DNA of 24,181 nucleotides from a virus (IMGVR_UViG_3300017754_001741:1-24181), one strand, 5' to 3'; shown: positions 3,298 to 18,362, counted from the stretch's first letter. Notes: generated from the letters alone by a model not told the origin. A program made the numbers and translations.

Positions 3298-4113
3298 ATG
3301 ACCCAACGACCTACACGCATTCTTTCCCTCGGAGCAGGAGTCCAATCCACAACCCTTTTGCTCATGATGCTTCACGGAGAGATTGAGCGAGCTGATCACG
3401 TCGTTTTCGCTGATACAGGCTGGGAGCCGAAGCGAGTCTACGAACACCTCGAGAACCTCAAGGTCCTCATGGAGGAGGCGCAGATCCCGTTTCACTTCGT
3501 CAGCAAGGGCAACATTCGAGAGGACTTCCTGACCGAGGGAGTCCGCGCCGCGTCGATGCCGTTACACATGGTCGGCGAGGACGGCAAGCCGGGCATGGTT
3601 CGTAGACAATGTACCGAGGAGTACAAGCTGAAGCCTCTCATGAAGAAACAGAGGGAGCTGGCTGGACTCGCAAAAGGACAGCGAAGCAAGGAACACCTCG
3701 TAACGACGCTCATCGGTATCTCGTGGGACGAGAGCCAGAGAATGAGGGATCCGAAGTTCTCATGGATACGTCACGAGTATCCCCTGATCGACCGACATCT
3801 CACACGGCAGGACTGCCTCGACTGGTGTGCGGACAAGGGCTACGCCCTTCCTCCTCGGTCGGCGTGTATCGGTTGTCCGTTCAAGAACACCGAGGAGTGG
3901 AGACTCCTGAGCGAGATGCCCGAGGAGTGGGCGGACGCAGTCGAGTTTGACGAGGCGCTACGGTCCCTCCCTCATTTACAGGCGAAGTATCGAGGGACGC
4001 CCTACCTCCACTCGTCACGAGTCGCCTTGAGAGACGCTGATCTGAGAACGAAAGAGGAAATGGGGATTGTGTCCCTATTCGATCAGGAGTGCGAAGGAAT
4101 GTGCGGACTCTGA
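3298..4113 (+). CDS. PAPS reductase-like PP-loop (adenine nucleotide alpha hydrolase) protein, copy 1
   Basis: LSLGAGVQST PP-loop, FADTGWE, RQCT..YK, IGIS.DE..R, YPL, PPRSACIGCPF, C-terminal CEGMCG; AGAAAGG RBS. Confidence 0.8.
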   Translation: MTQRPTRILSLGAGVQSTTLLLMMLHGEIERADHVVFADTGWEPKRVYEHLENLKVLMEEAQIPFHFVSKGNIREDFLTEGVRAASMPLHMVGEDGKPGMVRRQCTEEYKLKPLMKKQRELAGLAKGQRSKEHLVTTLIGISWDESQRMRDPKFSWIRHEYPLIDRHLTRQDCLDWCADKGYALPPRSACIGCPFKNTEEWRLLSEMPEEWADAVEFDEALRSLPHLQAKYRGTPYLHSSRVALRDADLRTKEEMGIVSLFDQECEGMCGL

Positions 4114-4433
4114 TGAAGCGTTCGGGAGCAATAACTCGACGGACTCCTCTCAAGAGATCCGCGCCTAAGCGACAGCGACGGACGGGACTCGACAGCGACG
4201 TTCGCACGAGCGTGTTCCTCCGAGACAAGGGCTGTAAAGGCAGAGAGCTGATCCCTGACCTCTCCTGTTGGGGGAAGCTCGATCCTCATCACATTCTACG
4301 GAAGTCACAAGGTGGGCAGGACACGCCCGACAACCTTGTGACCCTCTGTAGGGCTCACCACGACTGGGTACACGGGAACCCTGAGTCGTCACGAAACCTC
4401 GGTCTCCTTCGGAGACCTCAACACAAGGAATAA
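4113..4433 (+). CDS. HNH endonuclease
   Basis: VFLRDKGC...C...LDPHHILRKSQGGQDTPDNLVTLCRAHHDWVH; start at TGATG overlap 4113. Confidence 0.85.
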   Translation: MKRSGAITRRTPLKRSAPKRQRRTGLDSDVRTSVFLRDKGCKGRELIPDLSCWGKLDPHHILRKSQGGQDTPDNLVTLCRAHHDWVHGNPESSRNLGLLRRPQHKE

Positions 4434-5550: not shown

Positions 5551-5922
5551 ATGACAACAGATCCAAACGGTCTCAAGACACACACACAGACAACCTTCCA
5601 GCGTCACGAACGCCGAACGCATCTCCGCGAGACGTTCTGGACCTTTACGGGTATGCGCTCCCTCAACGCCTGCTACAGCGACGGTCTCCACATGATCTCG
5701 TTCATTACGCACGACCGCGACGACTCTCGTCAGACCGTTATCCACGCTCATAGGACCGAGACGATCTCGATCGACTCCGACGACGAACTCGCGTTATGTA
5801 TCAACATACGAACTAACGACGGCGTTCCTCTGACGATCCACCTCCACGACGTCACACTCTCGCAACTCATGGAGGCGCTCGATACAGCCCTCCTTTCGAG
5901 GACAGCGACGGAGACAGCATGA
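5551..5922 (+). CDS. Hypothetical protein
   Basis: 123 aa ORF, AGAAAGA upstream, ATGA overlap with the methyltransferase. Confidence 0.7.
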   Translation: MTTDPNGLKTHTQTTFQRHERRTHLRETFWTFTGMRSLNACYSDGLHMISFITHDRDDSRQTVIHAHRTETISIDSDDELALCINIRTNDGVPLTIHLHDVTLSQLMEALDTALLSRTATETA

Positions 5923-6968
5923 CCGAGGAGTCAACTCCCCTTGCGACGATCCTCGTCGGAGATGTCCTCGACAGGCTGACAGACATTTTCGACGGCTCGG
6001 TTCAATGCTGTATCACGTCTCCTCCGTATTGGGGGCTCCGCGATTACGGAACAGGAGAGTGGATCGGCGGAGATCCCGATTGCTCTCATCGGCGCGATTC
6101 AAAGTTCTCCGAGCTGACCGCGACAGGGCATAAGAACCTCGAGATCGGCGGAGTCGGCGACGGCATTTACAAGTCGCTGTGTAAGCAATGCGGAGCGCGT
6201 CGCGTCGACAGCCAGCTCGGACTCGAGGAGACTCCCGACGAGTACGTCGAGAGTATGGTCCGCGTTTTCCGTGAGGTCCGACGTGTCCTCGCCGACGACG
6301 GAGTCCTCTGGCTCAACCTCGGCGACTCCTACTCAGGATCAGGCAAGGGTCCAGCAGGCAACCTCGGCGCTACGAATAACGAGCGTCACATGGAACACGC
6401 GCACAGCGCGATCGTTCCCGACGGACTCAAACCGAAGGACCTCGTCGGGATACCTTGGCGAGTCGCCTTCGCTCTACAGAAGGACGGCTGGTATCTACGG
6501 CAGGACGTTATTTGGCACAAGCCGAACCCGATGCCCGAGAGCGTCCTCGATCGCTGTACTAAGGCTCACGAATACGTTTTCATGCTGACGAAGTCGGCGA
6601 GGTACTACTTCGATAACAAGGCGATTGCAGAGGCGACCGTCTCGACGTCGACGGATCTCGCCGAGAAGTCGACACGCAATAAAAGGTCGGTATGGACGAT
6701 CGCTGTCAAGGCGTTCAAGGGCTCTCACTTCGCAGTTATGCCCGAGGCGCTAGTCGAGCCCTGTCTCCTGTCCTCGAGTCGTAAGGGCGACCTAGTCCTC
6801 GACCCTTTTACAGGATCGGGAACCGTCGGAGTCGTCGGACTTCGTTACGGTCGGCGCTTCGTCGGGACCGAACTCAACCCCGAATACGCGAAGCTCGCCC
6901 GAGGACGGATCTCGGAGGATAATCCTCTCTGGAATGTCGTCACGATCGACGAGAAGGAGACAGTATGA
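5919..6968 (+). CDS. Site-specific DNA methyltransferase, N4-C/N6-A family (beta arrangement)
   Basis: N-terminal catalytic TSPPY, WLNLGD, IWHKPNPMPES, C-terminal SAM-binding VLDPFTGSGT...ELNPEY; Cys-containing insertion (DCSH...CKQCG). Confidence 0.92.
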   Translation: MTEESTPLATILVGDVLDRLTDIFDGSVQCCITSPPYWGLRDYGTGEWIGGDPDCSHRRDSKFSELTATGHKNLEIGGVGDGIYKSLCKQCGARRVDSQLGLEETPDEYVESMVRVFREVRRVLADDGVLWLNLGDSYSGSGKGPAGNLGATNNERHMEHAHSAIVPDGLKPKDLVGIPWRVAFALQKDGWYLRQDVIWHKPNPMPESVLDRCTKAHEYVFMLTKSARYYFDNKAIAEATVSTSTDLAEKSTRNKRSVWTIAVKAFKGSHFAVMPEALVEPCLLSSSRKGDLVLDPFTGSGTVGVVGLRYGRRFVGTELNPEYAKLARGRISEDNPLWNVVTIDEKETV

Positions 6969-7555
6969 GCATTCCCCTAGACCTAGACCTCCAAATGACA
7001 GGGCTACTCGATAGCGCAATCGAGATGTGGAGGAAAGACGGTTGCGTCATGACGTGCTCGTACGCGCTCGGACACTCCGCACACGCCTTCGCTCAGCCTT
7101 ACGAGATCCAAGGAGTCACGATTGCGATCGAGACGCGAGTCGCGCTCCATGCCCTCATCGCCGCCTGCGTCAACGCTCGTTACATTGGGCGAATCGACGA
7201 GAGCTGGGTCCGTCTGTCCGACGTCGGAGAGCCCGATCTCGTTCACGGAGATCTCGAGCAAATGGCTGATTACGATCCTCGGGTAGCGACAGCGATCTGC
7301 GTACAGGCATACGACCTCGAGACGGGAGACTCCTATCTCCACATGGCGACCCTGAGCCTCGACGACAACGGATCTCAGCAATGGCGCAGGACATTTTCGG
7401 AAGATGTCGAGGGACGGATCGTAGGAGGATCTCAGCTCACCGCACGAGCAATACCGATCCTGTCGAAAGAGACCGACCTCAACGCCGAGGTCGTCGAGAG
7501 CTTCCTCAACGCGGTCGGCTGGACAATGGCTGTAGCGAGCGCGGAGGCGGAATGA
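6965..7555 (+). CDS. Hypothetical protein
   Basis: 196 aa ORF, AAGGAG RBS, ATGA overlaps on both sides. Confidence 0.7.
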   Translation: MSIPLDLDLQMTGLLDSAIEMWRKDGCVMTCSYALGHSAHAFAQPYEIQGVTIAIETRVALHALIAACVNARYIGRIDESWVRLSDVGEPDLVHGDLEQMADYDPRVATAICVQAYDLETGDSYLHMATLSLDDNGSQQWRRTFSEDVEGRIVGGSQLTARAIPILSKETDLNAEVVESFLNAVGWTMAVASAEAE

Positions 7556-7635
7556 GAACGCTGATGACAATCGCCTATTACCTCGGCGCAGCTGCGATTA
7601 TGTACGCAATGTGGAGGTGGCTCCATGAGATGTGA
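7552..7635 (+). CDS. 27 aa membrane peptide
   Basis: MRTLMTIAYYLGAAAIMYAMWRWLHEM; GGAGG RBS and ATGA overlap; fills the gap between two genes. Confidence 0.5.
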   Translation: MRTLMTIAYYLGAAAIMYAMWRWLHEM

Positions 7636-8143
7636 GTTCGCGGAGACCGTATCGCGTCGTCTTTACAACGGGACCGAGAGAACAGACTCCCTCGCCAATC
7701 TTTTACAGGCTGGAGGACAACTCGAGGCACACTACCGAAAGGTCTGCCCTTGCTACGGCTTTCCTCCTGTCGATCGGATCTGCGTACCTGAGCCTGTCGT
7801 CGAGCCTGTCGCTCCGCCGACACGATCCTTCGCACACGGGCTCAACGCCTATTGCGTCTACAAGTGTCGGTGCGAGATCTGTATCACCGCGAATACGGAA
7901 TCCAAACGTAAATACCGACCTCTGTCCGATGCTGTAAAGGTCCGACTCGACGCTCAGCCTCTAATCAGCAGGCTCACTCGAGACGGTCGCCTCGCCGCAG
8001 TCGAGAACTCCAAGATCTCAAGCTGGCGCAAGGACGGAATCGGGATCTACTCTGCTGACAAGTGGTGTATTCGCCTCGGCTATCACCCGATTGAGATCTG
8101 GGGACAGGATTTCTACGTCTCGATAGCGCCTGACGTCGACTAG
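7625..8143 (+). CDS. Zinc-binding / HTH DNA-binding protein
   Basis: HG..AY....CRCEIC..AN motif common in actinophage proteins; C-terminal ADKWCIRLGYHPIEIWG HTH-like tail. Confidence 0.6.
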   Translation: MRCEFAETVSRRLYNGTERTDSLANLLQAGGQLEAHYRKVCPCYGFPPVDRICVPEPVVEPVAPPTRSFAHGLNAYCVYKCRCEICITANTESKRKYRPLSDAVKVRLDAQPLISRLTRDGRLAAVENSKISSWRKDGIGIYSADKWCIRLGYHPIEIWGQDFYVSIAPDVD

Positions 8144-8316
8144 ACCGCCGACGTCGCTGTCCCGTAGATCCGCACAACATTGACGCAAGGATCTCCCTGA
8201 GCATCGAACTCCGAGATCTCCTCCTCCGTGTACGGCAATCCGTCGTGAGTATCGCAGACAGGATCCGAACAGAAGCCCTGAGCCTTTCCGTAGTTGATCC
8301 ATTCGGCAAGTGTCAT
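8140..8316 (-). CDS. Small Cys/His hypothetical phage protein (only credible minus-strand gene)
   Basis: MTLAEWINYGKAQGFCSDPVCDTHDGLPYTEEEISEFDAQGDPCVNVVRIY (58 aa) fills the gap between + genes; overlapping stops at CTAG 8140-8143. Confidence 0.6.
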   Translation of the reverse strand: MTLAEWINYGKAQGFCSDPVCDTHDGLPYTEEEISEFDAQGDPCVNVVRIYGTATSAV

Positions 8317-8353
8317 CTCAGGCGTCACGTCGACAAGTGTAACGTAGGGGAGT

Positions 8354-9127
8354 ATGCCTCTCGGATCTCGCACACTCCTGACGCAGAACTCCGAGTTACG
8401 CCCTGATCACATCTGGAACTACGCCATACCAGCTTGGTACGTTGTCCTCCCGACAGGCGAGAGGTTCAAGACCTGCCCGAACGCAGGAGCCTGTGCTCAG
8501 GTGTGCTATGCGAGAAACGGGACCTATCGGTTCTCCAATGTCCTCGAAGCGCACACGCGCAACCTCACTCGCTATCTCGACGACCCGGGTCAATGGCTCT
8601 CCGACCTACACGGGGAGCTGGCGCAGTCGAAGTTCCGACCGACAGGCATACGACGTCGCGTGACGGGAGATCTCGATCCCTACCTTCGTCAATGGGTCGA
8701 GCGAGGAGGATCGGCGGTCCGTATCCACGACTCCGGCGACTTCTTTTCTCTTGAGTACCTTCGAGATTGGATCTACACGGCTCGCCTGTTCAGCGACGTC
8801 CTGTTCTACGCCTACACGAAAGAGGTCTCTCTCCTCAAGAGTCTCGACCCCGACGAGATCCCTCCGAACTTCCGCTACCTGTTCTCGACGGGAGGACTCG
8901 AGGACAGCCTCATTGACCCTGACAAGGATCGCCACGCAGACGTTTTCCCGACCGAGGAGGCAATCGCCCTAGCTGGATACCAGAGTCAAGAAGCCTCGGA
9001 TCTCCTCGCAATCCTTCTCAATACGACGAGGATCGGCATACCTGCTAACAACATTCCTCACTTCAACAAGAAGCTCAACGGGCGACGGTTCTCCGAGATC
9101 GGGAGACAGGATCGCTCGAAGGGATAG
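8354..9127 (+). CDS. Gp88-like protein (radical-SAM-related Fe-S protein)
   Basis: TCPNAGACAQVCYA (CX5CX3C), VRIHDSGDFF and FYAYTK motifs characteristic of the phage gene product 88 family. Confidence 0.8.
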   Translation: MPLGSRTLLTQNSELRPDHIWNYAIPAWYVVLPTGERFKTCPNAGACAQVCYARNGTYRFSNVLEAHTRNLTRYLDDPGQWLSDLHGELAQSKFRPTGIRRRVTGDLDPYLRQWVERGGSAVRIHDSGDFFSLEYLRDWIYTARLFSDVLFYAYTKEVSLLKSLDPDEIPPNFRYLFSTGGLEDSLIDPDKDRHADVFPTEEAIALAGYQSQEASDLLAILLNTTRIGIPANNIPHFNKKLNGRRFSEIGRQDRSKG

Positions 9128-9164
9128 AACTAGAGGGTCGAAAAGGTCGATACCTACCTCTGTC

Positions 9165-9188
9165 GGTAACACCCATTGGTGATACCAT
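9165..9188 (+). promoter_or_regulatory. Inverted repeat overlapping an extended -10 (second operator type)
   Basis: GGTAACACC-CATT-GGTGATACC (one mismatch); TG-A-TACCAT at 9180-9188, 7 nt before ATG 9196. Confidence 0.5.
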
Positions 9189-9195
9189 TTACGCA

Positions 9196-9453
9196 ATGGC
9201 TCCGACACCTCCTCCACCTCCCCGATCCTCACGAGAACAGAAACTCGAGTCCCTCGAACGCGAGATCGTCAGAGGACAGCGAGCCCTTCTCGAGCGCAAT
9301 CGCCTTGTCGTCGAACTCGTCTCCTCGGGCTACACGCAGGCAGACATCACCCGACGCCTCAACCGCCAGCGGACAGCCCTGAGCGCCGAACCTCTCACAC
9401 CCGACGCGATCCACGTCATTATCAAGAGAACCTCACCCAAGGAGAGCAACTAA
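9196..9453 (+). CDS. Small HTH-like DNA-binding protein, paralog 2
   Basis: LERNRLVVELVSSGYTQADITRRLN...LTPDAIHVIIKR aligns with 5264-5491. Confidence 0.65.
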   Translation: MAPTPPPPPRSSREQKLESLEREIVRGQRALLERNRLVVELVSSGYTQADITRRLNRQRTALSAEPLTPDAIHVIIKRTSPKESN

Positions 9454-10079
9454 TGAAAACGATTGAGCAAGAGTTCGACCCTGCGATCGCAGTCGCGGAC
9501 CTGTCCGAGCACCCCGACAACCCTCGCCGAGGCGACTCCAAGGCAGTCAACGACAGCATCGCCGCTAACGGCTTCTACGGGGCGATCCTCGTACAGAAGT
9601 CGACGGGTCGAGTCCTCGCTGGTCACACTCGCCTCAAGGCGGCTAAGCAGAGTGGCGCAACAGAGGTTCCGGGGATCTGGCTCGACGTCGACGACGCTCA
9701 GGCGAAGCGGATCCTTCTCGCGGACAATCGCACGAGCGACCTCGCCTACTACGACGATGACGCCCTTTTCGCTGTCCTCGGCTCGATCCTCGAGGACGGA
9801 GACAGCCTCAAGGGAACGGGATACGACGACGCGACCTACACTCTCCTGCTCCGCAACGACGAAAACCCGAACGACCTCTACGTCGGAAACGTCGAGCAGG
9901 GCATGACACCCGGCGACCGAGGACCGATCTACGACGCAAGCGACATTCGCTCGATCATTCTCCCGTTTCAAGGAGAAACCTACGACGAGGTCGTACAGAA
10001 CCTCACGACCTTGCGCTCGCGTTTCGACGTCAAGACGAACGCCGACGTAGTTCGGATCGTCCTCAGTCGGGCGATCTAG
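9453..10079 (+). CDS. ParB/sulfiredoxin-like N-terminal domain protein
   Basis: HPDNPRR...SIAANGFYGAILV...VLAGHTRLKAAK...LLADNRT; AAGGAG RBS, TAATG overlap. Confidence 0.85.
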   Translation: MKTIEQEFDPAIAVADLSEHPDNPRRGDSKAVNDSIAANGFYGAILVQKSTGRVLAGHTRLKAAKQSGATEVPGIWLDVDDAQAKRILLADNRTSDLAYYDDDALFAVLGSILEDGDSLKGTGYDDATYTLLLRNDENPNDLYVGNVEQGMTPGDRGPIYDASDIRSIILPFQGETYDEVVQNLTTLRSRFDVKTNADVVRIVLSRAI

Positions 10080-10081
10080 CC

Positions 10082-11026
10082 ATGAAGCGAGTCGTCCTCC
10101 AGCGACGTGTTCCCTCGGTTGTCTGTACGTCAATGGACGTCGGAGACAGGACTCGTACGATCCGTTCGTGCGGAGAGCTGATCCCGTACACGCCGAACAA
10201 GCCCTGCCCGAACTGCGGTCGAAAGCAGATCCGCGCGACAGCGCCAGCCCCGAGCCCCGACTCCCTCGTGATCAACGAGACAGCCTGTATCGTCGACGCC
10301 GATCTCGACGAGGTCGTCGCTGTCCAGATCCTCGGGGAACAGCAACTCGCCTCCGCAATCGCACAGCAGCTGCGACACGTCACTCAATGGGAGCGTGTCG
10401 GCAACGAAGGACGTCTTTCGGGGATCTCTGTCGAGCACAACACGTTTGGCTACGCGGCTCCAGCTCCTCTCCGATCTCGCTGGGCGTGTACGCGCTGTCG
10501 CTTCGACCGCAACTACCCCGACGCCGCGGAGCTGATCTACGACTTCGTCTACACCGCCGAGCGACGATTCCGCGAACACGCGCCCGACGCCTACCGTCAA
10601 TCCGCCGAGGCTGTTCTCGACGCGGTCCCGAACGCATGGCTTATTCGAGGGACGCCTTGGACCTCGGGGATCATCAACAACACCGCCGCCCTCCCGTTCC
10701 ACAAGGACTCAGGGAACATCAGAGGCTCATGGTCCGCCATGATCGCCTGTCGACACGGGATCGACGGAGGAATGCTCTACCTCGCGGACTACGACGTCTA
10801 CCTCGCTGTTCCTCACGGCTCGATCTCTATTTTCGACGGACAATCTGTGCTACATGGCGTTACGCCCTTTACCGTCACGTCGCACGACGCGTGGCGCTAC
10901 ACGCTCGTTGCCTACGCTAAGAGCGGCATGAAGTCATGCTCTCCGAATCCTGCCGACGAGGTAGAGCGCGCCGCGATTCGCGCCACCGACGCCGATCGGC
11001 GCAAGGCAGAGCGCCTCCGTAAGTGA
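10082..11026 (+). CDS. TET/JBP-like 2-oxoglutarate/Fe(II) dioxygenase
   Basis: HKD (HxD) then N, FDGQSVLHGVTP (distal His), RYTLVAY (2OG-binding Arg); N-terminal Cys cluster CPNCG. Confidence 0.8.
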   Translation: MKRVVLQRRVPSVVCTSMDVGDRTRTIRSCGELIPYTPNKPCPNCGRKQIRATAPAPSPDSLVINETACIVDADLDEVVAVQILGEQQLASAIAQQLRHVTQWERVGNEGRLSGISVEHNTFGYAAPAPLRSRWACTRCRFDRNYPDAAELIYDFVYTAERRFREHAPDAYRQSAEAVLDAVPNAWLIRGTPWTSGIINNTAALPFHKDSGNIRGSWSAMIACRHGIDGGMLYLADYDVYLAVPHGSISIFDGQSVLHGVTPFTVTSHDAWRYTLVAYAKSGMKSCSPNPADEVERAAIRATDADRRKAERLRK

Positions 11027-12105
11027 CCCTGACGACACTTCCCGACGACGCCGATCTACGCCGAGCTGAGTATCGGCGAGAGGTATTCCTTCGGTTCTAC
11101 GACTATCACACGAAGTACGGGACGCACCCCGGACTCGTCTACCTCATAATCCCCAGCCTCGCGGAGAAGCTCGAATGGACAACCGAGGAGACTCTCTGGT
11201 TCTCCTTCCTCAACGGCTGTACGCAACACCCGATTACTACGCTTCGCCTGTGGCGTGTCGCCCCGTCGATCGCCGACGCGGACAGGCTCGTCGGGTGGCT
11301 CGAGGAGAACGTCACTTCGATCGTCGTCGATACGGATCGGCGCTACCACCGTCGAGCGATACCGCAGGCGATACAGGGCTACAGAACCCTTCTCGGCGGA
11401 TCCTCACAGGAGGACTTCTGGAGAACGAAGGCAAGCGAAGGCTGGAGCGCGACATGGTCCGCGGCTCGAGCAATCCCGACCTTCGGCAGACTCTCCGCGT
11501 GGTCTTTCTGCGATTACCTCCTCTGCTCGGGCATCGCTGTCTCTCCGAGCGACCTCATGCTCGAGGATCGAGCCGGATCCCGATCGCACCGCAACGGACT
11601 CGCAATCGTGTCGGGACGCGATGACCTCGATCATCACGCGAGCAACCCGTCCTTCGACGGGCGCTACACGGGACAGGACCTCGAGTACCTCGCTCAGGTC
11701 GGCGACGACCTACTCCTCGAGGCACAGACACGCGCCGAGGGAGAGCCCTACGCTCGTTTCGTCAACAGACTGACCCTTGAGTCGGCTCTCTGTACCTACA
11801 AGTCTTTCCACCGACCCAACCGTCGGTATCCAAACGTCTACGCGGACATGATGTACGACAGGATCATGGCGTCGCGAGGAGTCGCGACCGACGCTGACCT
11901 CGACTTATTCTGGGAGATCCGCGCTGAGCGCCTCCCCGTCGAGCTGAGACTCGAGGACAACCTCGGAGACCCGGGTTGCGTCGCGCTCAAACAGAACTGG
12001 TACAGAGAGACAGGACGGTTGCCGATGATGTCGGGAGAATACGCGGACATGAGATGCGAGTTCGACGATCTCGTACGCACCAACTCGTTCGGAGTGTTCC
12101 GATGA
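11023..12105 (+). CDS. Amino acid:DNA transferase-like protein (aGPT-Pplase family, HhH glycosylase-like fold)
   Basis: DTDRRY, FGRLSAWSFCDYL, SHRNGL, LESALCTYK motifs; GTGA overlap; gene context. Confidence 0.72.
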   Translation: MTLTTLPDDADLRRAEYRREVFLRFYDYHTKYGTHPGLVYLIIPSLAEKLEWTTEETLWFSFLNGCTQHPITTLRLWRVAPSIADADRLVGWLEENVTSIVVDTDRRYHRRAIPQAIQGYRTLLGGSSQEDFWRTKASEGWSATWSAARAIPTFGRLSAWSFCDYLLCSGIAVSPSDLMLEDRAGSRSHRNGLAIVSGRDDLDHHASNPSFDGRYTGQDLEYLAQVGDDLLLEAQTRAEGEPYARFVNRLTLESALCTYKSFHRPNRRYPNVYADMMYDRIMASRGVATDADLDLFWEIRAERLPVELRLEDNLGDPGCVALKQNWYRETGRLPMMSGEYADMRCEFDDLVRTNSFGVFR

Positions 12106-13007
12106 CGATCGGGTGGGGCGAGGTCCTCACGGCTACGACGCCTTGGGAGAACCGAGGAGGGCGCTGGTACAAGCGAGAGGATTACTGCGCGCCTCTCGGC
12201 TACGGCAAGGTCAACGGAGCGAAGTTCCGTCAATGTCTCTTTCTCCTCAACCGAGCTGCCGAGTCGGGCTACTCAGGGATCGTCACGGGAGCCTCTGTCC
12301 TGTCGCCTCAGCTCCCCATGAGCGCCTGTATCGCCGAGCACGTCGGGCTTCCCCTGCGGATCGTCATCGGAGGGACAACACTCGACAAGGCAATACGCCA
12401 CAGCAACGTCAAGATCGCGCTCGACTTCGGAGCTGAGTTCCGCACGATCCGCGTGGGCTACAACCCGGCTCTACAGTCGGCTGTCACCAAGGACGTCGAG
12501 GAGACAGGGCGTTACCACCTCCGCTACGGGATCTCTCCCGACCCCGACGACGACTCGGTCATCGCCTTTCACAAGGTCGGCGCGGAACAGGCGCGCAACA
12601 TTCCGTCGGACCTCCATCACCTCGTCATACCCTGCGGATCGGCGAACTCGACGATCTCGATCCTTCTCGGGCTGTCGATCTACCCTCACTCCCTCGAGAA
12701 GGTCACGCTCATCGGGATAGGACCGAACAGAGAGAGCCTCATCGCGGACCGTCTCGACCTATTCCGCGAGAAGCTCGGAGTGTCCCTCCCGTCCTCTCTC
12801 GAGATCGAGATGCACGACCTCCATTCCTCGGGACTCGTCTCCTACGGCAAGCGCGTTCCTCAGTCGCTCGACGGGATCACCTTTCACCCGACCTACGAGG
12901 GCAAGGTCGTCAATCACCTGCTCTCTCACCCCGACGTAGCCCGAGGCTTCACCGAGGGAGACTCGACGACAGGGCTCTGGATCATCGGGTCCGAGCCGAA
13001 AGGATAG
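12102..13007 (+). CDS. PLP-dependent enzyme, fold type II (ACC deaminase/D-cysteine desulfhydrase-like)
   Basis: YKRED...NGAKFR (PLP Lys), IPCGSANS, HPTYEGK, LWIIG; start at ATGA overlap 12102. Confidence 0.8.
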   Translation: MTIGWGEVLTATTPWENRGGRWYKREDYCAPLGYGKVNGAKFRQCLFLLNRAAESGYSGIVTGASVLSPQLPMSACIAEHVGLPLRIVIGGTTLDKAIRHSNVKIALDFGAEFRTIRVGYNPALQSAVTKDVEETGRYHLRYGISPDPDDDSVIAFHKVGAEQARNIPSDLHHLVIPCGSANSTISILLGLSIYPHSLEKVTLIGIGPNRESLIADRLDLFREKLGVSLPSSLEIEMHDLHSSGLVSYGKRVPQSLDGITFHPTYEGKVVNHLLSHPDVARGFTEGDSTTGLWIIGSEPKG

Positions 13008-13009
13008 GC

Positions 13010-13549
13010 ATGAGAACGATCTACGTCATTGGAGCGCCCGGCTCAGGGAAGTCGTCTGCCGTCCTCCGCGCGACAGAACTCGTACATTGGGGAACACCGA
13101 CGCAACTCCTCGCCCCGATCCCACACCTTGATTACGGCGCAGGCTGTATCCAGCTCGGTAAGGTCCGCGAGACAGGCTTCTCAGGGACCGATGCTCTCGG
13201 CATGGCGATCAACCCCAAGGCGATCGAGTTCATCTCCTCCCGTCCAGCCAACGTCGTCCTCGGAGAAGGGGACAGGCTCGCCAACTCAGGCTTCCTTACC
13301 GCGGCGGACAGCGCAGGCGTACTAACGATTGTGTGGATCGACGTCCCTCCCGAAGTAGCGAGAGCGAGAGCCCGAGAACGCGCCCTCCGTCTCGGCACGA
13401 AGGAACAGACAGAGTCGTGGTGGAAGGGGCGCTACACCAAGACGCAACGCCTCGCTGGAGGCTGGTCTCACGTTCGGATCGACGGGACACAGAGCCCCGA
13501 CGTCGTCGCACAGGCGCTCGCTGACGTACTCCCGACACCTCGTTACTGA
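13010..13549 (+). CDS. P-loop nucleotide kinase (candidate 5-hydroxymethyluracil DNA kinase)
   Basis: IGAPGSGKS Walker A, FSGTDAL, VLGEGDRL; located next to the transferase and oxygenase. Confidence 0.75.
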   Translation: MRTIYVIGAPGSGKSSAVLRATELVHWGTPTQLLAPIPHLDYGAGCIQLGKVRETGFSGTDALGMAINPKAIEFISSRPANVVLGEGDRLANSGFLTAADSAGVLTIVWIDVPPEVARARARERALRLGTKEQTESWWKGRYTKTQRLAGGWSHVRIDGTQSPDVVAQALADVLPTPRY

Positions 13550-13566
13550 TAGCGTCAACTACCGAA

Positions 13567-13767
13567 ATGGGTAGACCGACCGAATACGAGACTCCACGCA
13601 TACAGGTATTGGTGCGCTTCGTCCCGAGGGACCTCCTCCTCGTCAAGGCTGAAGCGCGTCACTTAGGGATCAGCCTCAACCGCCTGATCGAGCGAGCCGT
13701 ACAGGATTGGATTATCCGCGAGGCAGGAGAGACAGACAGCCTCGACACTACGAAGGACACGCAATGA
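13567..13767 (+). CDS. Ribbon-helix-helix (Arc/HicB-like) DNA-binding protein
   Basis: QVLVRF...VKAEARHLGISLNRLIERAV pattern. Confidence 0.65.
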   Translation: MGRPTEYETPRIQVLVRFVPRDLLLVKAEARHLGISLNRLIERAVQDWIIREAGETDSLDTTKDTQ

Positions 13768-14498
13768 CCGCTAAGAAGGCAACCCCGAAGTCGACATCTG
13801 AGAAGCCCGTCGCCAAGCCTCCTCGCAAGGCAAGAGCCCGACGAGAGCCAACGGAGCGTTCGATCGACCTCGCGAAGGCGACCAACCTTGCCCTCGCTGG
13901 GGCGACCTACAAGCAGATTGCCTCGGAACTCTCGCTCGACGAGGAGACGGTCCGCTACCACCTCCTGTCTCCCGAGGGACAGCGAGCCCTTCGGTACGCG
14001 GTCAACGACCTACAGGATCGGACCGATCGGTTCCTCGCCTCGGCGCACCTACAGGCGATCCGACGTCTCGTGAGAGAAATGGAGGAGGCAGAGAAGTCGG
14101 GCGACCGTATTCGAGCCGCCTCGGCGATCACAATGCTGGCGGCGCGACGGATCGAGATCACAGGCGCGAACGGAGGTCCTGTCGAGGTCGATACGACGGC
14201 GGCGACACTTCTCGACGAACGCATCTCTCGAATGAGAGAGAGGTCGCGTACGGTGATAGATACGACAGCCGTTACCGTCGCAGCTGCCTCAGAACCTCAA
14301 GAGACTCAGAATGAGGTCATTGAGATCGTCCCGATCCAGCCCGAACTCAAAGAACTCAAAGAAACCACAGCAATCATCGTTGAGGTCGCTGAGTCTGTTG
14401 AGGTCCTTGAGGCTGTCCCCGAGCCGACACGTCTGCCGACGCGGACTCGACAGCCTGCTGGACTCGCTCCGGGTCAGGGACTTCGAGCAAGGCGATGA
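13764..14498 (+). CDS. Probable terminase small subunit (HTH plus low-complexity tail)
   Basis: GATYKQIASELSLDEETVRYHL HTH, IEITGANGGPVEV motif, directly upstream of TerL; start at ATGA overlap 13764. Confidence 0.7.
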   Translation: MTAKKATPKSTSEKPVAKPPRKARARREPTERSIDLAKATNLALAGATYKQIASELSLDEETVRYHLLSPEGQRALRYAVNDLQDRTDRFLASAHLQAIRRLVREMEEAEKSGDRIRAASAITMLAARRIEITGANGGPVEVDTTAATLLDERISRMRERSRTVIDTTAVTVAAASEPQETQNEVIEIVPIQPELKELKETTAIIVEVAESVEVLEAVPEPTRLPTRTRQPAGLAPGQGLRARR

Positions 14499-15901
14499 CG
14501 ACGATCGACAACTCTCAATGGGAACGCATGAGCGACGCGGAGCGCGCGATCCTGACAGGGGAGATCGACGAGATCCGAGCAGGGCTGTCTCCGTCTCAGC
14601 TCGAACAACTCATGTACCTCTGGGAGTTTTGGCGTCGCCCTAATCAGGCGCGTCCCGAGGGACTAGGGACTCGCTACCGCGCGTGGATGCTGATCGCTGG
14701 TCGAGGCTTCGGTAAGACTCGCGTCGGGGCGGAGACGACTCGACAGATGATCGGGATCGAACCTCGCATCGCCCTTGTCGGACCGACCGCCGCTGACGTG
14801 CGTGACGTCATGGTCGAAGGAGAGTCGGGTCTGCTGTCCGTGTTCCCTCCCTCCGAGCGCCCGATCTACGAGCCCTCGAAACGTCGAGTCACATTCCACA
14901 ATGGCGCAATGGCGACCTTGTTCTCGGCGGAGGAGCCCGATCGACTACGCGGACCTCAGCATGGTTGGGCATGGGTCGACGAGCCTGCCTCGATGCCTCG
15001 AGGCGAGGACGCTCTCTCGAACCTTCTCCTCGGTCTACGCCTCGGCAGGGAGCCTTGGGCGCTCCTCACGGGAACCCCGAAGCCTGCTCGCTGGCTCAGA
15101 CTCCTGTCTCAGCGCGACGATACTCTCGTCACGACAGGATCGACGTACGACAACGTCGCCAACCTCGCGCCGGGCTTCATTGACGACGTCCTCGGCAGGT
15201 ACGAAGGTACTCGCCTCGGGCGACAGGAGTTACACGCTGAGTGGCTCGACGACGTCGAAGGGGCGCTCTGGACGGAGCTGATCCTCGACCGATCCCGTCT
15301 CACGTCGTTCGATGTCCGTCAACCTTGGGCTGGACTCAATAAGCACCTCTCCGACCGAGGTCTCCCGTCGCTCCTCGAGCGTCGCGCGTGGAGGATCATC
15401 GTCGCTGTCGATCCGCCGGGCGAGACAGCTGAGTGCGGAATAATCGTCGCCTGCGCGCCTACGCAGGGCAGGGCTGGCGTCGATCACGCAGTCGTCCTCG
15501 AGGATTGCTCGATGCCCGGACGCCCCGAGGAATGGGGAGCGCAAGTAGCCTCCGCCGCCAAACGCTGGAACGCGGAGCGCGTCGTCGTCGAGTCCAATCA
15601 GGGCGGAGACATGGTCCGCGCGACGATCCACGCAGTCGAGCCGAATCTCCGAGTCGAAAAGATCACCGCCCGTCTTAGCAAGTCAGCTCGAGCCGAGCCC
15701 GTCTCCGCGCTGTACGAGCGAGGTCTCGTACACCACGCTGGCTTCTTTCCCATGCTCGAGAGTCAGATGACTAGCTGGGTCCCGAACGAAGGTAAGAGTC
15801 CCGACCGAATGGACGCTCTCGTACACGCGATCGCGTCTCTGCTGATCGCACAGCCCGTTGTACCCGGCTCGGTTGTCTCTCCCACACGTCGTCGCCTGTA
15901 A
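14495..15901 (+). CDS. terL: Terminase large subunit
   Basis: AGRGFGKT Walker A, LRGPQ..WAWVDE Walker B, TGTP, LGRQEL, VAVDP, VESNQGG, SPDRMDA nuclease motifs. Confidence 0.95.
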   Translation: MTTIDNSQWERMSDAERAILTGEIDEIRAGLSPSQLEQLMYLWEFWRRPNQARPEGLGTRYRAWMLIAGRGFGKTRVGAETTRQMIGIEPRIALVGPTAADVRDVMVEGESGLLSVFPPSERPIYEPSKRRVTFHNGAMATLFSAEEPDRLRGPQHGWAWVDEPASMPRGEDALSNLLLGLRLGREPWALLTGTPKPARWLRLLSQRDDTLVTTGSTYDNVANLAPGFIDDVLGRYEGTRLGRQELHAEWLDDVEGALWTELILDRSRLTSFDVRQPWAGLNKHLSDRGLPSLLERRAWRIIVAVDPPGETAECGIIVACAPTQGRAGVDHAVVLEDCSMPGRPEEWGAQVASAAKRWNAERVVVESNQGGDMVRATIHAVEPNLRVEKITARLSKSARAEPVSALYERGLVHHAGFFPMLESQMTSWVPNEGKSPDRMDALVHAIASLLIAQPVVPGSVVSPTRRRL

Positions 15902-15917
15902 CGACTAGACTCGGCAC

Positions 15918-16208
15918 ATGACACCATTTCTACTGACGCTCGTCGCGCTGTCGACATACCGACTCACACGCCTGATTACTGCCGACCGCCTTACGCAACG
16001 GATCCGAGAATGGGCGATTGCGAGAGGCGAGATGATCGGCTACCTCGCGACGTGCGACTGGTGTCTCTCGATCTGGATCGCTCCTGTCCCGTCGGTCCTT
16101 GCGCTCATTTACCCCTCCAATAGACTCCTCCTCGGAGCGTTAGTCGCGCTCTCCGCATCAGCCCTCACGGGTCTGATCGCCGCAACAGAAAGCAAACTCG
16201 ATGCCTGA
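15918..16208 (+). CDS. DUF1360-like membrane protein
   Basis: YRLTRLITAD...LATCDWCLSIW with hydrophobic helices; typical position after the terminase in actinophages. Confidence 0.75.
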   Translation: MTPFLLTLVALSTYRLTRLITADRLTQRIREWAIARGEMIGYLATCDWCLSIWIAPVPSVLALIYPSNRLLLGALVALSASALTGLIAATESKLDA

Positions 16209-17022
16209 TAGCCCTTACCCATTGCGAGTCCTGTCCCTCGGAGCAGGAGTTCAGTCGACGACGGTCCTCCTCAAGATGATCGCAGGAGAGATCGAGAGAG
16301 CCGACCACGTCGTCTACGCCGACGTCGGCTGGGAACCGAAAAATGTCTACACGCACCTTGACTACCTCAAGGGTCTCATGGAGAAGGAAGGGATCCCGTT
16401 CCACGTCGTCTCCGCAGGCAACATTCGTCAGGACTTCGTCGAGGGACGATCGGGCTTCGCCTCGATGCCTCTACACGTCGTCAACGCCGAGGGAAAGAAG
16501 GGCATGAAGCCGAGGCAATGTACAAGCAACTACAAGATCTTGCCCCTGCTCAAGAAGCAGAGAGAGCTGGCAGGGCTCGCCAAGGGCGAACGCTGTAAGG
16601 AACACCGCATTACGACCGTCATCGGGATCTCGGCTGACGAGTCTCAGCGAATGCGCGATCCTGCCTTCTCGTGGATCCGCAACGAGTATCCCCTCGTTGA
16701 CGCAGGACTAACCCGACAGGATTGTCTGGACTGGTGCGAGGAGCATGGCTTCGACCGTCCTCCTCGATCAGCTTGTATCGGCTGTCCGTTCAAGTCTCAA
16801 GACGAGTGGCGAGCCCTTCGGCAGATGCCCGAGGAATGGGCTGACGCGATCGACTTCGACGAGGCTGTCCGACGCGACCCCGGCATCATCGAACGCTTCG
16901 GCGGTCGCGCCTACCTTCACGCCTCCCTCCAGCCTCTCAGCGAGGTCGATCTCCGCACGAACGATGAGAAGGGGATCTGGTCTCTGTTTGACATGGAGTG
17001 CGAAGGAATGTGCGGTCTCTGA
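16201..17022 (+). CDS. PAPS reductase-like PP-loop protein, copy 2
   Basis: Colinear paralog of 3298-4113, same LSLGAGVQST, SACIGCPF and ECEGMCGL motifs. Confidence 0.8.
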   Translation: MPDSPYPLRVLSLGAGVQSTTVLLKMIAGEIERADHVVYADVGWEPKNVYTHLDYLKGLMEKEGIPFHVVSAGNIRQDFVEGRSGFASMPLHVVNAEGKKGMKPRQCTSNYKILPLLKKQRELAGLAKGERCKEHRITTVIGISADESQRMRDPAFSWIRNEYPLVDAGLTRQDCLDWCEEHGFDRPPRSACIGCPFKSQDEWRALRQMPEEWADAIDFDEAVRRDPGIIERFGGRAYLHASLQPLSEVDLRTNDEKGIWSLFDMECEGMCGL

Positions 17023-17038: not shown

Positions 17039-17100
17039 CAAAAAATAATCTTGCTAAAGACTTGACAACCCGACTCGAGTCGGCTATCTTTAGATACATG
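17039..17100 (+). repeat. 62 bp direct repeat, copy A: UP element, promoter, operator (copy 5), leaderless ATG
   Basis: CAAAAAATAAT..., TTGACA (17062-17067), 17 bp, TATCTT (17085-17090), 7 nt, ATG 17098; 58/62 identical to 18340-18401. Confidence 0.9.
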
Positions 17101-17565
17101 AGCACGACATACATCAGCACCAAGACCCCAGTCATCGTCATTCCTTGTGGAGGCGCTAAGGCTTCCGAGGCTTGTGCCGCTCGCGATCTCTACATCGGCT
17201 CAGCCTTCCAAGAGCAACTCGCTGGAGCAATCGCCGAGGTCGGCGAGAACAACGTCTACATTCTCTCGGCGCTTCACGGTCTCATCGGCATCAACGACGT
17301 CATCGCTCCTTACGACGTCAAGATGGGCGACAAGGGCTCGATCAGCAAGACCGAAAAGGGCTTCCAGCGTCTCGTCCTCGGGATCATCTGGTACGGTCTC
17401 GAGGACGACGCTCTCGACGTTTACGCGATGCTCCCGAACGCTTACTTCTCCATTTTCGACAAGGCAATGCGCTACTGCGAGGCTGTCCCTCCAGCGCAGA
17501 CCTACGAAGCCACAGCTGGCATCGGCGAGCACAAGGCGATCTCAAAGAAGATGCGCCTCCGCTAG
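17098..17565 (+). CDS. DUF6884-like protein
   Basis: IVIPCGGAK....AARDLYIGSAF...YILSALHGL.......PYDVKM and GIGE motifs; true start at ATG 17098. Confidence 0.65.
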   Translation: MSTTYISTKTPVIVIPCGGAKASEACAARDLYIGSAFQEQLAGAIAEVGENNVYILSALHGLIGINDVIAPYDVKMGDKGSISKTEKGFQRLVLGIIWYGLEDDALDVYAMLPNAYFSIFDKAMRYCEAVPPAQTYEATAGIGEHKAISKKMRLR

Positions 17566-18362
17566 TGAGGTTCTACCTCGGGACGGATCAACCCGTCTGG
17601 CTGGAGAGGGCTGACCGCCCTCTCTTTCTGTCGTGGAACAGCGTCGCTCGATCCCGACATACCGCACGAGTGAATTGGGCTCTCGACTCAGGAGGCTTCA
17701 CGCAGATCGTCCGTCACGGGAGTTACGAAACGGATCCCGAGACCTACGCTCGGGGAGTCGCTCGTCTCCTGTCCGAAGTCGGCAGACTCCAGTTCGCTGT
17801 CGTACAGGATTACCCATGCGCGCCCCTCGCGCTCGAGATGACGAACCTCACCGTCGCCGAGCACCAACGTCTCACGATCGAGTCGACGCTCGATCTGGCG
17901 TCGATTGCTCCTGAGTTGCCTTGGGCTCCTGTCCTCACGGGGATAACGCCGAGCGACTTCCTGCGTCACGCCGACGCGTACGAGAGAGCTGGGGTCGATC
18001 TCCGATCCTTCGGGACCGTGTCGATCGGAGCCCTCGTCGGTCGGTCCTACCCCGATCAGCTCTCGGTGCTGACGGCTGTCGACACGCTCGGACTTCCGTA
18101 TCACGGGCTCGGGATCAAGGGTCGAACACTTCGATCAACTTGGCAGCTGCTACAGAGTGCTGACTCAATGGCGTGGTCGATGACAGCGCGCCGAGCTGAC
18201 GGTCCTCTCTGTCGCCCCGACGCGACTCATCAGAGGTGTAAAGGCTGTCTGATCTGGGCTCAGCGTTGGGCGGAGAAACTCGACGGATCCCTCGAAACGG
18301 AGACGTTTCAGCCTTCTCTTTTCCCTACGTTTCATGGCTCAAAAAATAATCCTGCTAAATAG
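17565..18362 (+). CDS. tRNA-guanine transglycosylase (TGT)/DpdA-like TIM-barrel protein
   Basis: GTG start overlapping TAG; RFYLGT, WALDSGGF, QDYPC, PVLTG, HGLGIK, SADSMAWS and terminal CxxC. Confidence 0.7.
   Translation: MRFYLGTDQPVWLERADRPLFLSWNSVARSRHTARVNWALDSGGFTQIVRHGSYETDPETYARGVARLLSEVGRLQFAVVQDYPCAPLALEMTNLTVAEHQRLTIESTLDLASIAPELPWAPVLTGITPSDFLRHADAYERAGVDLRSFGTVSIGALVGRSYPDQLSVLTAVDTLGLPYHGLGIKGRTLRSTWQLLQSADSMAWSMTARRADGPLCRPDATHQRCKGCLIWAQRWAEKLDGSLETETFQPSLFPTFHGSKNNPAK

Follow-up and report, generated by a model that had tools for sequence, protein, structure and literature searches.

The IMG/VR virus record IMGVR_UViG_3300017754_001741:1-24181, a linear stretch of 24,181 bases (the whole of which is here called the window; CheckV completeness 28%), carries at positions 9453-13549 five tightly coupled genes that probably constitute a post-replicative thymine hypermodification route, in which a TET/JBP dioxygenase aided by a ParB-like protein, a kinase, an amino acid:DNA transferase (AADT) and a pyridoxal phosphate (PLP) enzyme lead to an amine-bearing base. 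In the pathway that we propose, the ParB-like protein likely activates the dioxygenase, which would oxidise thymine in finished DNA to 5-hydroxymethyluracil (5hmU); the P-loop kinase would phosphorylate 5hmU, the AADT would swap the phosphate for an amino acid, and the PLP enzyme, which resembles gp226 of phage ViI, would probably decarboxylate the linked amino acid, giving an amine-bearing side chain. On the simplest view the donor would be serine, attached via its side chain in the manner of ViI, and the final base would then resemble 5-NeOmdU; that the product is exactly 5-NeOmdU is a tentative proposal, whose chances we place somewhat short of even. The chemistry of the steps is taken from homologues, thymine oxidation and ParB dependence from O'Toole et al. 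(2026) and the kinase, transferase and decarboxylase reactions from Lee et al. (2021); how the steps follow one another in this phage, which amino acid is donated and what base results are inferred. The genes of the operon are as follows.

9453-10079, + strand: ParB-like protein, 208 aa (PF02195 and phrog_723)
10082-11026, + strand: TET/JBP dioxygenase, 314 aa (PF12851)
11023-12105, + strand: AADT, formerly aGPT-Pplase clade 2, 360 aa (PF18724 and phrog_3271)
12102-13007, + strand: fold-type-II PLP enzyme, 301 aa (PF00291 and phrog_3650)
13010-13549, + strand: P-loop kinase of the 5-hmdU DNA kinase family (Ploopntkinase3), 179 aa (PF18751)

The operon and its dioxygenase-ParB pair

The first-pass annotation of this DNA had pointed to five tightly coupled genes just before the terminases, and all five are present there on the + strand, with junctions that are, in order, a 2-nt gap, a 4-nt overlap, a second 4-nt overlap and a 2-nt gap. 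The PLP gene likely begins not with the TTG at 11976 but with the ATG at 12102, which shares bases with the stop codon of the AADT gene (ATGA). Because the block recurs in 35 of the 80 related viral loci surveyed below, the five-gene set is no chance grouping. Searches of the five proteins with hidden Markov models (HMMs) and predicted structures upheld the family assignments that had been proposed, with the folds of the dioxygenase and the AADT matching solved members of their families, and the motifs named at that stage (HxD..H..R in the dioxygenase, KRED and the PLP-binding lysine in the PLP enzyme, and Walker A in the kinase) proved to be real.

As judged from its model, the product of 10082-11026 is a TET/JBP-family (5mYOX) Fe(II)/2-oxoglutarate dioxygenase with a TET fold and an intact active site. 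It matches PF12851 with E 5e-9 and exceeds the curated cut-off by a narrow margin (36.0 bits versus 34.9), and all 21 of 21 homologues in the alignment keep the iron triad H207-x-D209 and H258 and the 2-oxoglutarate-binding R272. When the PDB was searched by sequence, it gave no match for the dioxygenase and, in both profile and single-sequence form, none for the AADT, and fold searches were therefore needed for both proteins. The AlphaFold2 model of the dioxygenase, built from 21 sequences (pLDDT 85.2, pTM 0.83), has NgTET1 and human TET2 as its best matches (E 3.3e-11), followed by CcTet and CMD1, with TM scores of up to 0.60. The first 17 matches listed (ranks 1-25) are all TET-family chains, with E from 3.3e-11 to 5.3e-9, and AlkB-like and other dioxygenases appear only from E 2.8e-5. 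By analogy with its homologues, the predicted substrate of the enzyme is thymine in DNA, oxidised to 5hmU.

The N-terminus of the dioxygenase (residues 1-60, 10082-10260) is beta-rich and contains four cysteines (C..C..CPNC) both in the window and in G001, the closest relative of the window, and is absent in the other 19 aligned homologues. This segment, where the pLDDT of the model is low (49-69), may be a lineage-specific zinc ribbon.

The ParB-like gene ends 2 nt before the start of the dioxygenase gene. Its product matches phrog_723 with E 7.4e-35 and PF02195 with E 2e-5 (25.0 bits versus a cut-off of 26.3), and consists of a ParB/Srx-type N-terminal domain at residues 12-92 and a conserved C-terminal block; in an alignment of 21 ParB-like proteins encoded next to a TET gene, N23, G57 and D101 are invariant. 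A role as activator of the dioxygenase is likely by analogy with the pairs described by O'Toole et al. (2026; PMC13229309). Consistent with this, the window falls, in a dioxygenase tree of 67 rows, within a clade of 39 rows (SH-aLRT 100) in which ParB is present in the locus for all 39, and which includes the cultured phages Prince, Wooper, Tonitrus, Matzah and Bumble, while 12 rows without ParB fall outside it. A complex prediction for the two proteins from their own alignments, run without controls, scored 0.00 against a mark of 0.32 and is counted neither for nor against binding.

Tandem ParB paralogues lie upstream of the dioxygenase gene in many related loci (for instance L021, L023, L030, L031, L033, L035, L060, L069 and L091) and resemble the ParB166_1/_2 pair listed by O'Toole et al. 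(PMC13229309). In the window there is a single ParB gene, preceded by an open reading frame (ORF) of 85 aa.

Kinase, amino acid:DNA transferase and PLP enzyme

The product of 13010-13549 is a P-loop kinase of the 5-hmdU DNA kinase family (PF18751, E 5.9e-23, 81.8 bits versus a cut-off of 27) with the Walker A motif GAPGSGKS at residues 8-15, and from its family it is predicted to act on 5hmU in DNA.

The AADT matches PF18724 with E 4.6e-12 (46.6 bits versus a cut-off of 26.2) and phrog_3271 with E 2e-69, has 1190 homologues at E <=1e-5 in a large protein collection, and is 30% identical to the serine transferase gp247 of ViI (E 2e-25). For its model, built from 23 sequences (pLDDT 94.0), the fold matches with a TM score above 0.5 are three chains of the 5-PmdU glycinyltransferase gp46 of PaMx11 (TM 0.50-0.65, E 6e-3 to 1.5e-2), every other match having a TM score of 0.37 or less. 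By analogy, the enzyme is predicted to displace the phosphate of 5-phosphomethyl-dU with an amino acid. The donor-specifying residues of this family are K248/Y257 in YuA for glycine and G227/D238 in 15599 for diamine; according to Li et al. (2026), the two YuA residues help to coordinate the glycine carboxylate, two pocket residues can switch the donor, and many family clusters are uncharacterised. In the columns aligned with K248/Y257 the window protein, which is 16% identical to YuA, has Thr258/Tyr269, and ViI gp247 has Trp/Tyr. Tyr269 fits a carboxylate-bearing (amino acid) donor. Since identity to gp247 is only 30% and gp247 is a long outlying branch, its donor specificity is not safely transferable to the window enzyme, and a donor prediction from the AADT tree was dropped on account of the length of that branch. 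One of the 1190 homologues, P0086 (608 aa), naturally joins an AADT (PF18724) to a Tet_JBP domain (PF12851) in one chain and is 49% identical to the window AADT.

The PLP enzyme matches phrog_3650 with E 8.5e-68 and PF00291 with E 1.4e-7 (31.6 bits, below the cut-off of 35). With ViI gp226 (Vi01_182, orf00226) it shares 32% identity over residues 3-299 of its 301 (E 5e-49), and its Lys41 aligns with Lys92 of gp226, which has been proposed as the aldimine residue (Lee et al. 2021; PMC8989533). The YKRED motif (K24, R25), Lys41 and G179, among other residues, are invariant in 21 of 21 aligned proteins, gp226 included. Weak sequence matches include D-cysteine desulfhydrase and 1j0a, a homologue of ACC deaminase that was reported as a template for gp226 by the same authors. 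Because gp226 decarboxylates O-seryl-thymidine in DNA (PMC8989533), its homologue in the window is predicted to be a decarboxylase of a DNA-linked amino acid, of the type of ViI gp226 and M6 gp52. Lee et al. give nominal masses of 345 u for the O-seryl intermediate and 301 u for 5-NeOmdU. Such decarboxylases need a free alpha-amine, which in M6 is supplied by a radical-SAM isomerase (PMC8989533), and Pfam scans found no radical-SAM, flavin or amidoligase gene in the operon and no radical-SAM gene in the window; the simplest interpretation is therefore a donor attached by its side chain, serine being an example.

Relatives of the PLP enzyme occur in 349 records of cultured phages, and the best 14 of the 349, which were inspected, belong to large phages of Gram-negative hosts, of ViI type or similar. 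No PLP homologue was found in any of the five cultured TET-bearing actinophages searched, and the exact five-gene set occurs, as far as checked, only in uncultured contigs. An apparent fusion of the PLP enzyme with the kinase in G001 was rejected, a stop codon being present between them. Pseudanabaena phage Pam4, a cultured cyanophage, was likewise rejected as a cultured relative of the module: its match, gene 70 (L097:5783-8272), is an 829-aa fusion of an N6_N4 methyltransferase with a PLP (PALP) domain, and its genome has no TET gene. As to portals, that of Pam4 ranks with the nearest relatives from cultured phages that the window portal has (35.6% identity).

Related loci, the source of 5hmU and rival explanations

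To place the operon among its relatives we used the 80 best viral loci by AADT, out of 581 confirmed relatives in a collection estimated to hold about 1400 matching stretches. The loci were chosen from an alignment of 23 AADTs and were scored with HMMs built iteratively from the window proteins and from the hydroxymethylase and clade-1 AADT of Glutamicibacter phage Montesquieu; they are those nearest to the window AADT and were not drawn at random, and contig ends truncate many of them. The dioxygenase is present in 62 of the 80 loci and a hydroxymethylase in 7, the two never occurring together (0/80), and 11 loci, mostly short ones, have neither. ParB accompanies the dioxygenase in 49 of 62 loci and the hydroxymethylase in none of 7; conversely, a clade-1 AADT paralogue occurs in 8 of the 80 loci, 7 of them with a hydroxymethylase and none with a dioxygenase. 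Kinase homologues are found in 75 loci, the full set of ParB, dioxygenase, AADT, PLP enzyme and kinase in 35, and the dioxygenase and kinase without a PLP gene in 21. Owing to this exclusive co-occurrence, we regard dioxygenase plus ParB and hydroxymethylase plus clade-1 AADT as two alternative front ends that feed the same downstream enzymes. Dioxygenase-fed and hydroxymethylase-fed clusters interleave in the AADT tree (84 rows).

Several of these loci have other candidate tailoring genes beside the dioxygenase, AADT and kinase genes: an Amidoligase_2 and a GATase gene at L017:4750-6810, a TET-associated glycosyltransferase gene at L058:3074-3979, a C5-methyltransferase gene at L066:4417-5502, and genes for NAD-dependent epimerases/dehydratases in L051 and L055.

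The position of the module relative to the packaging genes was scanned in 36 loci, for 57 of the 61 long ORFs found in the 3 kb downstream of it; the four left out were two from L041, a duplicate of L040, and two alternative frames that overlap. Of the 36 loci, 13 have a large terminase within this distance, with four different Pfam terminase families represented, and in cultured phages too the cassette lies shortly before the terminase. Such a recurring placement is suggestive of late expression together with the packaging genes. As to the initial proposal that the modification is coupled to packaging, the terminase does adjoin the operon, and the coupling is read from gene order, which does not imply a mechanistic link. 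The mark would serve to shield the DNA of the phage from nucleases of the host; it would probably be confined to certain sequence contexts and be made late, alongside the packaging genes.

The source of 5hmU was examined in the window and in G001 (50,038 bp, CheckV completeness 87%), whose DNA is 87-90% identical to that of the window and which has the same five genes, the terminase and DpdA. PF00303 (thymidylate synthase/dUMP hydroxymethylase) matched neither record; the same search was positive in the controls Vi01 and Montesquieu, and the family is absent from the complete genome of the TET-bearing Mycobacterium phage Prince. PF00145 (C5-methyltransferase) also matched neither of the two records. 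The earlier remark that the window has no C5-methyltransferase was thus borne out, and the search of the remaining genome for this enzyme or a dUMP hydroxymethylase, made through G001, found neither. No DNA polymerase or nucleotide-metabolism family is among the Pfam matches of the 54 ORFs of G001, and the lack of a polymerase fits a phage unable to readily replace dTTP before replication. The post-replicative route via a TET/JBP enzyme that had been put forward is supported by the TET fold and intact active site of the dioxygenase, its ParB-linked clade, the lack of a hydroxymethylase and of a C5-methyltransferase in both records, the mutual exclusion of dioxygenase and hydroxymethylase across the 80 loci, and the homology of the PLP enzyme and AADT to ViI gp226 and gp247. 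From the kinase step on the operon resembles the pre-replicative systems of ViI, M6 and PhiW-14, but by its gene content it is not of the pre-replicative type.

Several observations weigh against the proposed thymine pathway. The Pfam scores of the ParB-like and PLP proteins lie just below the curated cut-offs, and the kinase shows no similarity to ViI gp243. In the AADT, Thr258 stands at the position of YuA Lys248 and matches no characterised enzyme, and a very long branch sets gp247 apart from the clade that holds all 83 other AADT rows. On the AADT tree the PLP gene must have been gained or lost at least 16 times, and the nearest AADT neighbours of the window besides G001 (L017 and L018) have no PLP gene, L017 having the amidoligase and GATase instead. 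Published 5mYOXs also oxidise 5-methylcytosine (5mC) in vitro (PMC13229309), and the window pair is assigned to its subclass by ParB linkage. As the window is 28% complete, the absence of a hydroxymethylase rests on an 87%-complete relative and not on a closed genome, and the pathway as a whole is read here from genes.

These points bear unequally on the alternatives. A route that runs as proposed to the AADT step and then gives a product other than the decarboxylated O-serine adduct, and hence an undescribed base, seems unlikely without being negligible. The donor could be threonine, cysteine, ornithine or lysine, linked via the side chain, or the PLP enzyme could catalyse beta-elimination or replacement, or make the donor itself. 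The 30% identity of the AADT to gp247, a long outlying branch, favours such an outcome, as do Thr258 at the donor-specifying position, the finding that two pocket residues can switch the donor in a family with many uncharacterised clusters (Li et al. 2026), and the fact that among named families the PLP enzyme comes closest to ACC deaminase and D-cysteine desulfhydrase; on the other hand, it is homologous over its full length (E 5e-49) to an enzyme proven to decarboxylate DNA-linked serine and has the same lysine, Tyr269 fits a carboxylate-bearing donor, and the operon has no radical-SAM, flavin or amidoligase gene. A different doubt concerns the ParB-like protein, which could be a nuclease or a protein for partition or the packaging site, working for the neighbouring terminase and unconnected with the dioxygenase, given that ParB-like genes are common beside phage terminases, that those of the cultured relatives are annotated as having a 'ParB-like nuclease domain', and that the operon lies directly upstream of the terminase genes. 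We consider this very improbable in view of the distribution of ParB (49 of 62 TET loci versus 0 of 7 hydroxymethylase loci), its persistence beside the dioxygenase gene where no terminase is nearby, and the requirement of homologous pairs for ParB in thymine oxidation on double-stranded DNA (PMC13229309).

Slightly less probable still is that the dioxygenase acts on 5mC, made by host or phage, and that the operon hypermodifies cytosine. Phage 5mYOXs can oxidise 5mC in vitro (PMC13229309), and L066 has a C5-methyltransferase near its dioxygenase, AADT and kinase genes; but PF00145 matched neither the window nor G001, the dioxygenases of L066 and L058 lack ParB and stand elsewhere in the tree than that of the window, and all characterised partners of such a kinase and AADT act on 5hmU, as far as Lee et al. 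(PMC8989533) report. The least probable of the alternatives is a supply of 5hmU before replication by a dUMP hydroxymethylase encoded outside the window, with the dioxygenase in some other role. The incompleteness of the window (28%) and of its best relative (87%) leaves some room for it, against which stand the absence of PF00303 from the window, G001 and the complete Prince genome in a search that was positive in Vi01 and Montesquieu, the lack of any locus among the 80 with both enzymes, and the lack of DNA polymerase and nucleotide-metabolism families among the Pfam matches of the 54 G001 ORFs.

Genomic setting and comparison with known systems

The window has a G+C content of 56-63%, and nearly all its long ORFs are on the + strand. 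Its other products include an ERF recombinase, an HNH endonuclease, a CcrM-like N6/N4 methyltransferase, a GP88-family protein, a terminase, a portal and a Mu-F-like head protein. A search for tRNA genes in the window gave none. The following features are referred to below.

3298-4113, + strand: PAPS-reductase-like protein (phrog_424, E 2e-48)
5919-6968, + strand: CcrM-like N6/N4 DNA methyltransferase (PF01555 E 1.9e-49; NCBIfam NF050803 E 4.9e-31)
9196-9453, + strand: small ORF, 85 aa, whose stop codon overlaps the ParB start codon by 1 base
13707-14498, + strand: helix-turn-helix (HTH) protein, probable small terminase, whose gene lies directly upstream of the large terminase gene and overlaps it
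14495-15901, + strand: large terminase (Terminase_6N E 1.9e-19, Terminase_6C E 1.4e-13)
16201-17022, + strand: PAPS-reductase-like protein (phrog_424, E 1e-47)
17062-17565, + strand: phrog_5935 gene, preceding DpdA
17565-18362, + strand: DpdA homologue (PF23859 E 9e-52, phrog_1279 E 6e-55)

Cultured relatives of the portal number 877 records, among them 496 from Mycobacterium, 198 from Gordonia and 131 from Microbacterium phages, with identity below 60% throughout; since nearly all are actinophages, the host is likely an actinobacterium. Megablast of the operon against cultured phages gave no match. It is uncertain whether the 85-aa ORF at 9196-9453, which has a counterpart in G001, belongs to the module; it has no PHROG match and only a weak match to RepB_primase_C (E 0.0025, under the cut-off). 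The protein encoded at 13707-14498, which has only weak HTH-family matches, is from its position probably the small terminase subunit. A promoter and terminator scan of 7500-16500 found no promoter-like site and three terminator-like sites, fewer than in shuffled sequences, one of them on the + strand upstream of the operon (7639-7656); such a scan is uninformative for a GC-rich host.

Judging from its genes, the phage has three separate DNA-modification functions, namely the thymine module, the DpdA homologue about 1.7 kb downstream of the large terminase, and the CcrM-like methyltransferase. Among the 80 related loci DpdA accompanies the thymine module in one (G001). Genes for preQ0 synthesis are not among the Pfam matches of the window or of the 87%-complete G001, and any 7-deazaguanine base would therefore be host-derived. 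A far-reaching combination, in which a non-serine donor of the AADT gives an undescribed thymine base, DpdA inserts 7-deazaguanine without phage preQ0 genes and adenine is methylated, so that three of the four bases are modified, with the thymine mark made at selected sites, late and with packaging, appears improbable to us. The two PAPS-reductase-like paralogues are 67% identical to each other and form clean insertions of about 850 bp relative to G001, which has neither, and they may be mobile; the gene at 3298-4113 overlaps the start of the HNH endonuclease gene (4089-4433). No publication that connects DpdA with genes of the PAPS-reductase-like kind came up in literature searches.

The operon is a compact kit of five genes in about 4.1 kb that should need only thymine-containing DNA and common metabolites to place a bulky amine, and being self-contained it is a practical candidate for reconstituting complete post-replicative thymine hypermodification in a laboratory host. 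Its PLP-bearing variant is common in viral metagenomes (35 of the 80 nearest loci), as against none of the five cultured TET actinophages checked. The original computational prediction of such a route is reportedly that of Iyer et al. in 2013. In metaviromes, Lee et al. (2021; PMC8989533) described clusters without a hydroxymethylase that have Tet/JBP beside kinase, AADT and tailoring genes, from which they inferred the making of 5hmU from thymine in situ, and O'Toole et al. (2026, PNAS; PMC13229309) reported ParB-dependent phage 5mYOXs, linked to kinases and AADTs, that convert thymine to 5hmU in E. coli and in vitro, with site preferences NTR and YTY. Because such a design had been inferred by 2021 and its initial step was demonstrated in 2026, the route itself is not new and the operon introduces no new biological principle. 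In agreement with the first-pass annotation, which knew of no chemically defined product for this gene set, literature searches, which missed most subscription journals, found no paper defining the final base of a TET-fed cluster.

Among the closest known systems are the ParB-dependent 5mYOXs of clade C1 (for instance 5mYOX176/ParB176) of O'Toole et al. (PMC13229309). In both, ParB lies directly upstream of the TET/JBP gene; the families by which O'Toole et al. marked neighbouring genes (PF12851, PF02195, PF18751 and PF18724) are all in the window too; the clade C1 ParB has a nucleotide-binding N-terminal domain and a C-terminal domain without a DNA-binding domain, and the window ParB is short, with an N-terminal domain and a conserved C-terminal block; and both dioxygenases have a C-terminal helical extension. 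The chain 7ne6_A is among the top structural matches for the window enzyme and for 5mYOX176 (Dataset S8), and by eye the tail of the window enzyme after the conserved Cys resembles that of 5mYOX176, which together with 5mYOX185 and 5mYOX177 is one of the enzymes assayed there. Unlike those systems, the window pair is GC-rich and actinophage-like, and its dioxygenase has the four-cysteine N-terminus. That report assays only the oxidation step and mentions a PLP enzyme in neither text nor supplements, whereas the window has one.

In the 5-NeOmdU pathway of ViI (Vi01), the kinases gp67/gp243, the serine:DNA transferase gp247 and the PLP decarboxylase gp226 act on 5hmU (Lee et al. 2018, 2021). The window shares with it the logic of the steps after 5hmU, with a P-loop kinase, an AADT 30% identical and a PLP enzyme 32% identical to those of ViI, the kinase having no sequence relationship to gp243. 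In ViI, 5hmU arises before replication through a hydroxymethylase of thymidylate-synthase type, and a clade-1 AADT paralogue is present as well; in place of these the window has the dioxygenase and ParB; moreover, the ViI genes are scattered, whereas those of the window form one operon. Montesquieu has a clade-2 AADT (39.7% identical) followed directly by a homologous PLP enzyme, annotated as 'ACC deaminase', and kinases, as in the window, but obtains 5hmU via a thymidylate synthase/hydroxymethylase with a clade-1 AADT paralogue and has neither TET nor ParB. Trypanosome JBP1/2, in the synthesis of base J, oxidise thymine to 5hmU after replication, with the group added afterwards, as is proposed here, but glucosylation is direct and involves no kinase, AADT, PLP step or ParB partner (PMC13229309).

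The cultured actinophage cassettes are those of Mycobacterium phage Prince and others (gp1-4), Gordonia phage Wooper (gp1-5) and Rhodococcus phage Tonitrus, the last described as a system of five genes for hypermodifying thymine (PMC11955845). In Wooper and Tonitrus the kinase is followed by an unannotated protein of about 290 aa (Wooper gp5, L101:3054-3926; Tonitrus gp8, L099:3761-4642), which was rejected as a PLP enzyme for lack of any similarity and is a candidate for an extra tailoring step. None of the five cultured TET phages checked has a PLP homologue, unlike the window, and Matzah has only ParB and the dioxygenase. The cassettes nevertheless share with the window the order ParB, TET, AADT, kinase and terminase at the start of the structural genes, the AADT of Prince and its relatives is 43.5% identical to that of the window, and the dioxygenases of the cassettes belong to the same ParB-associated clade.

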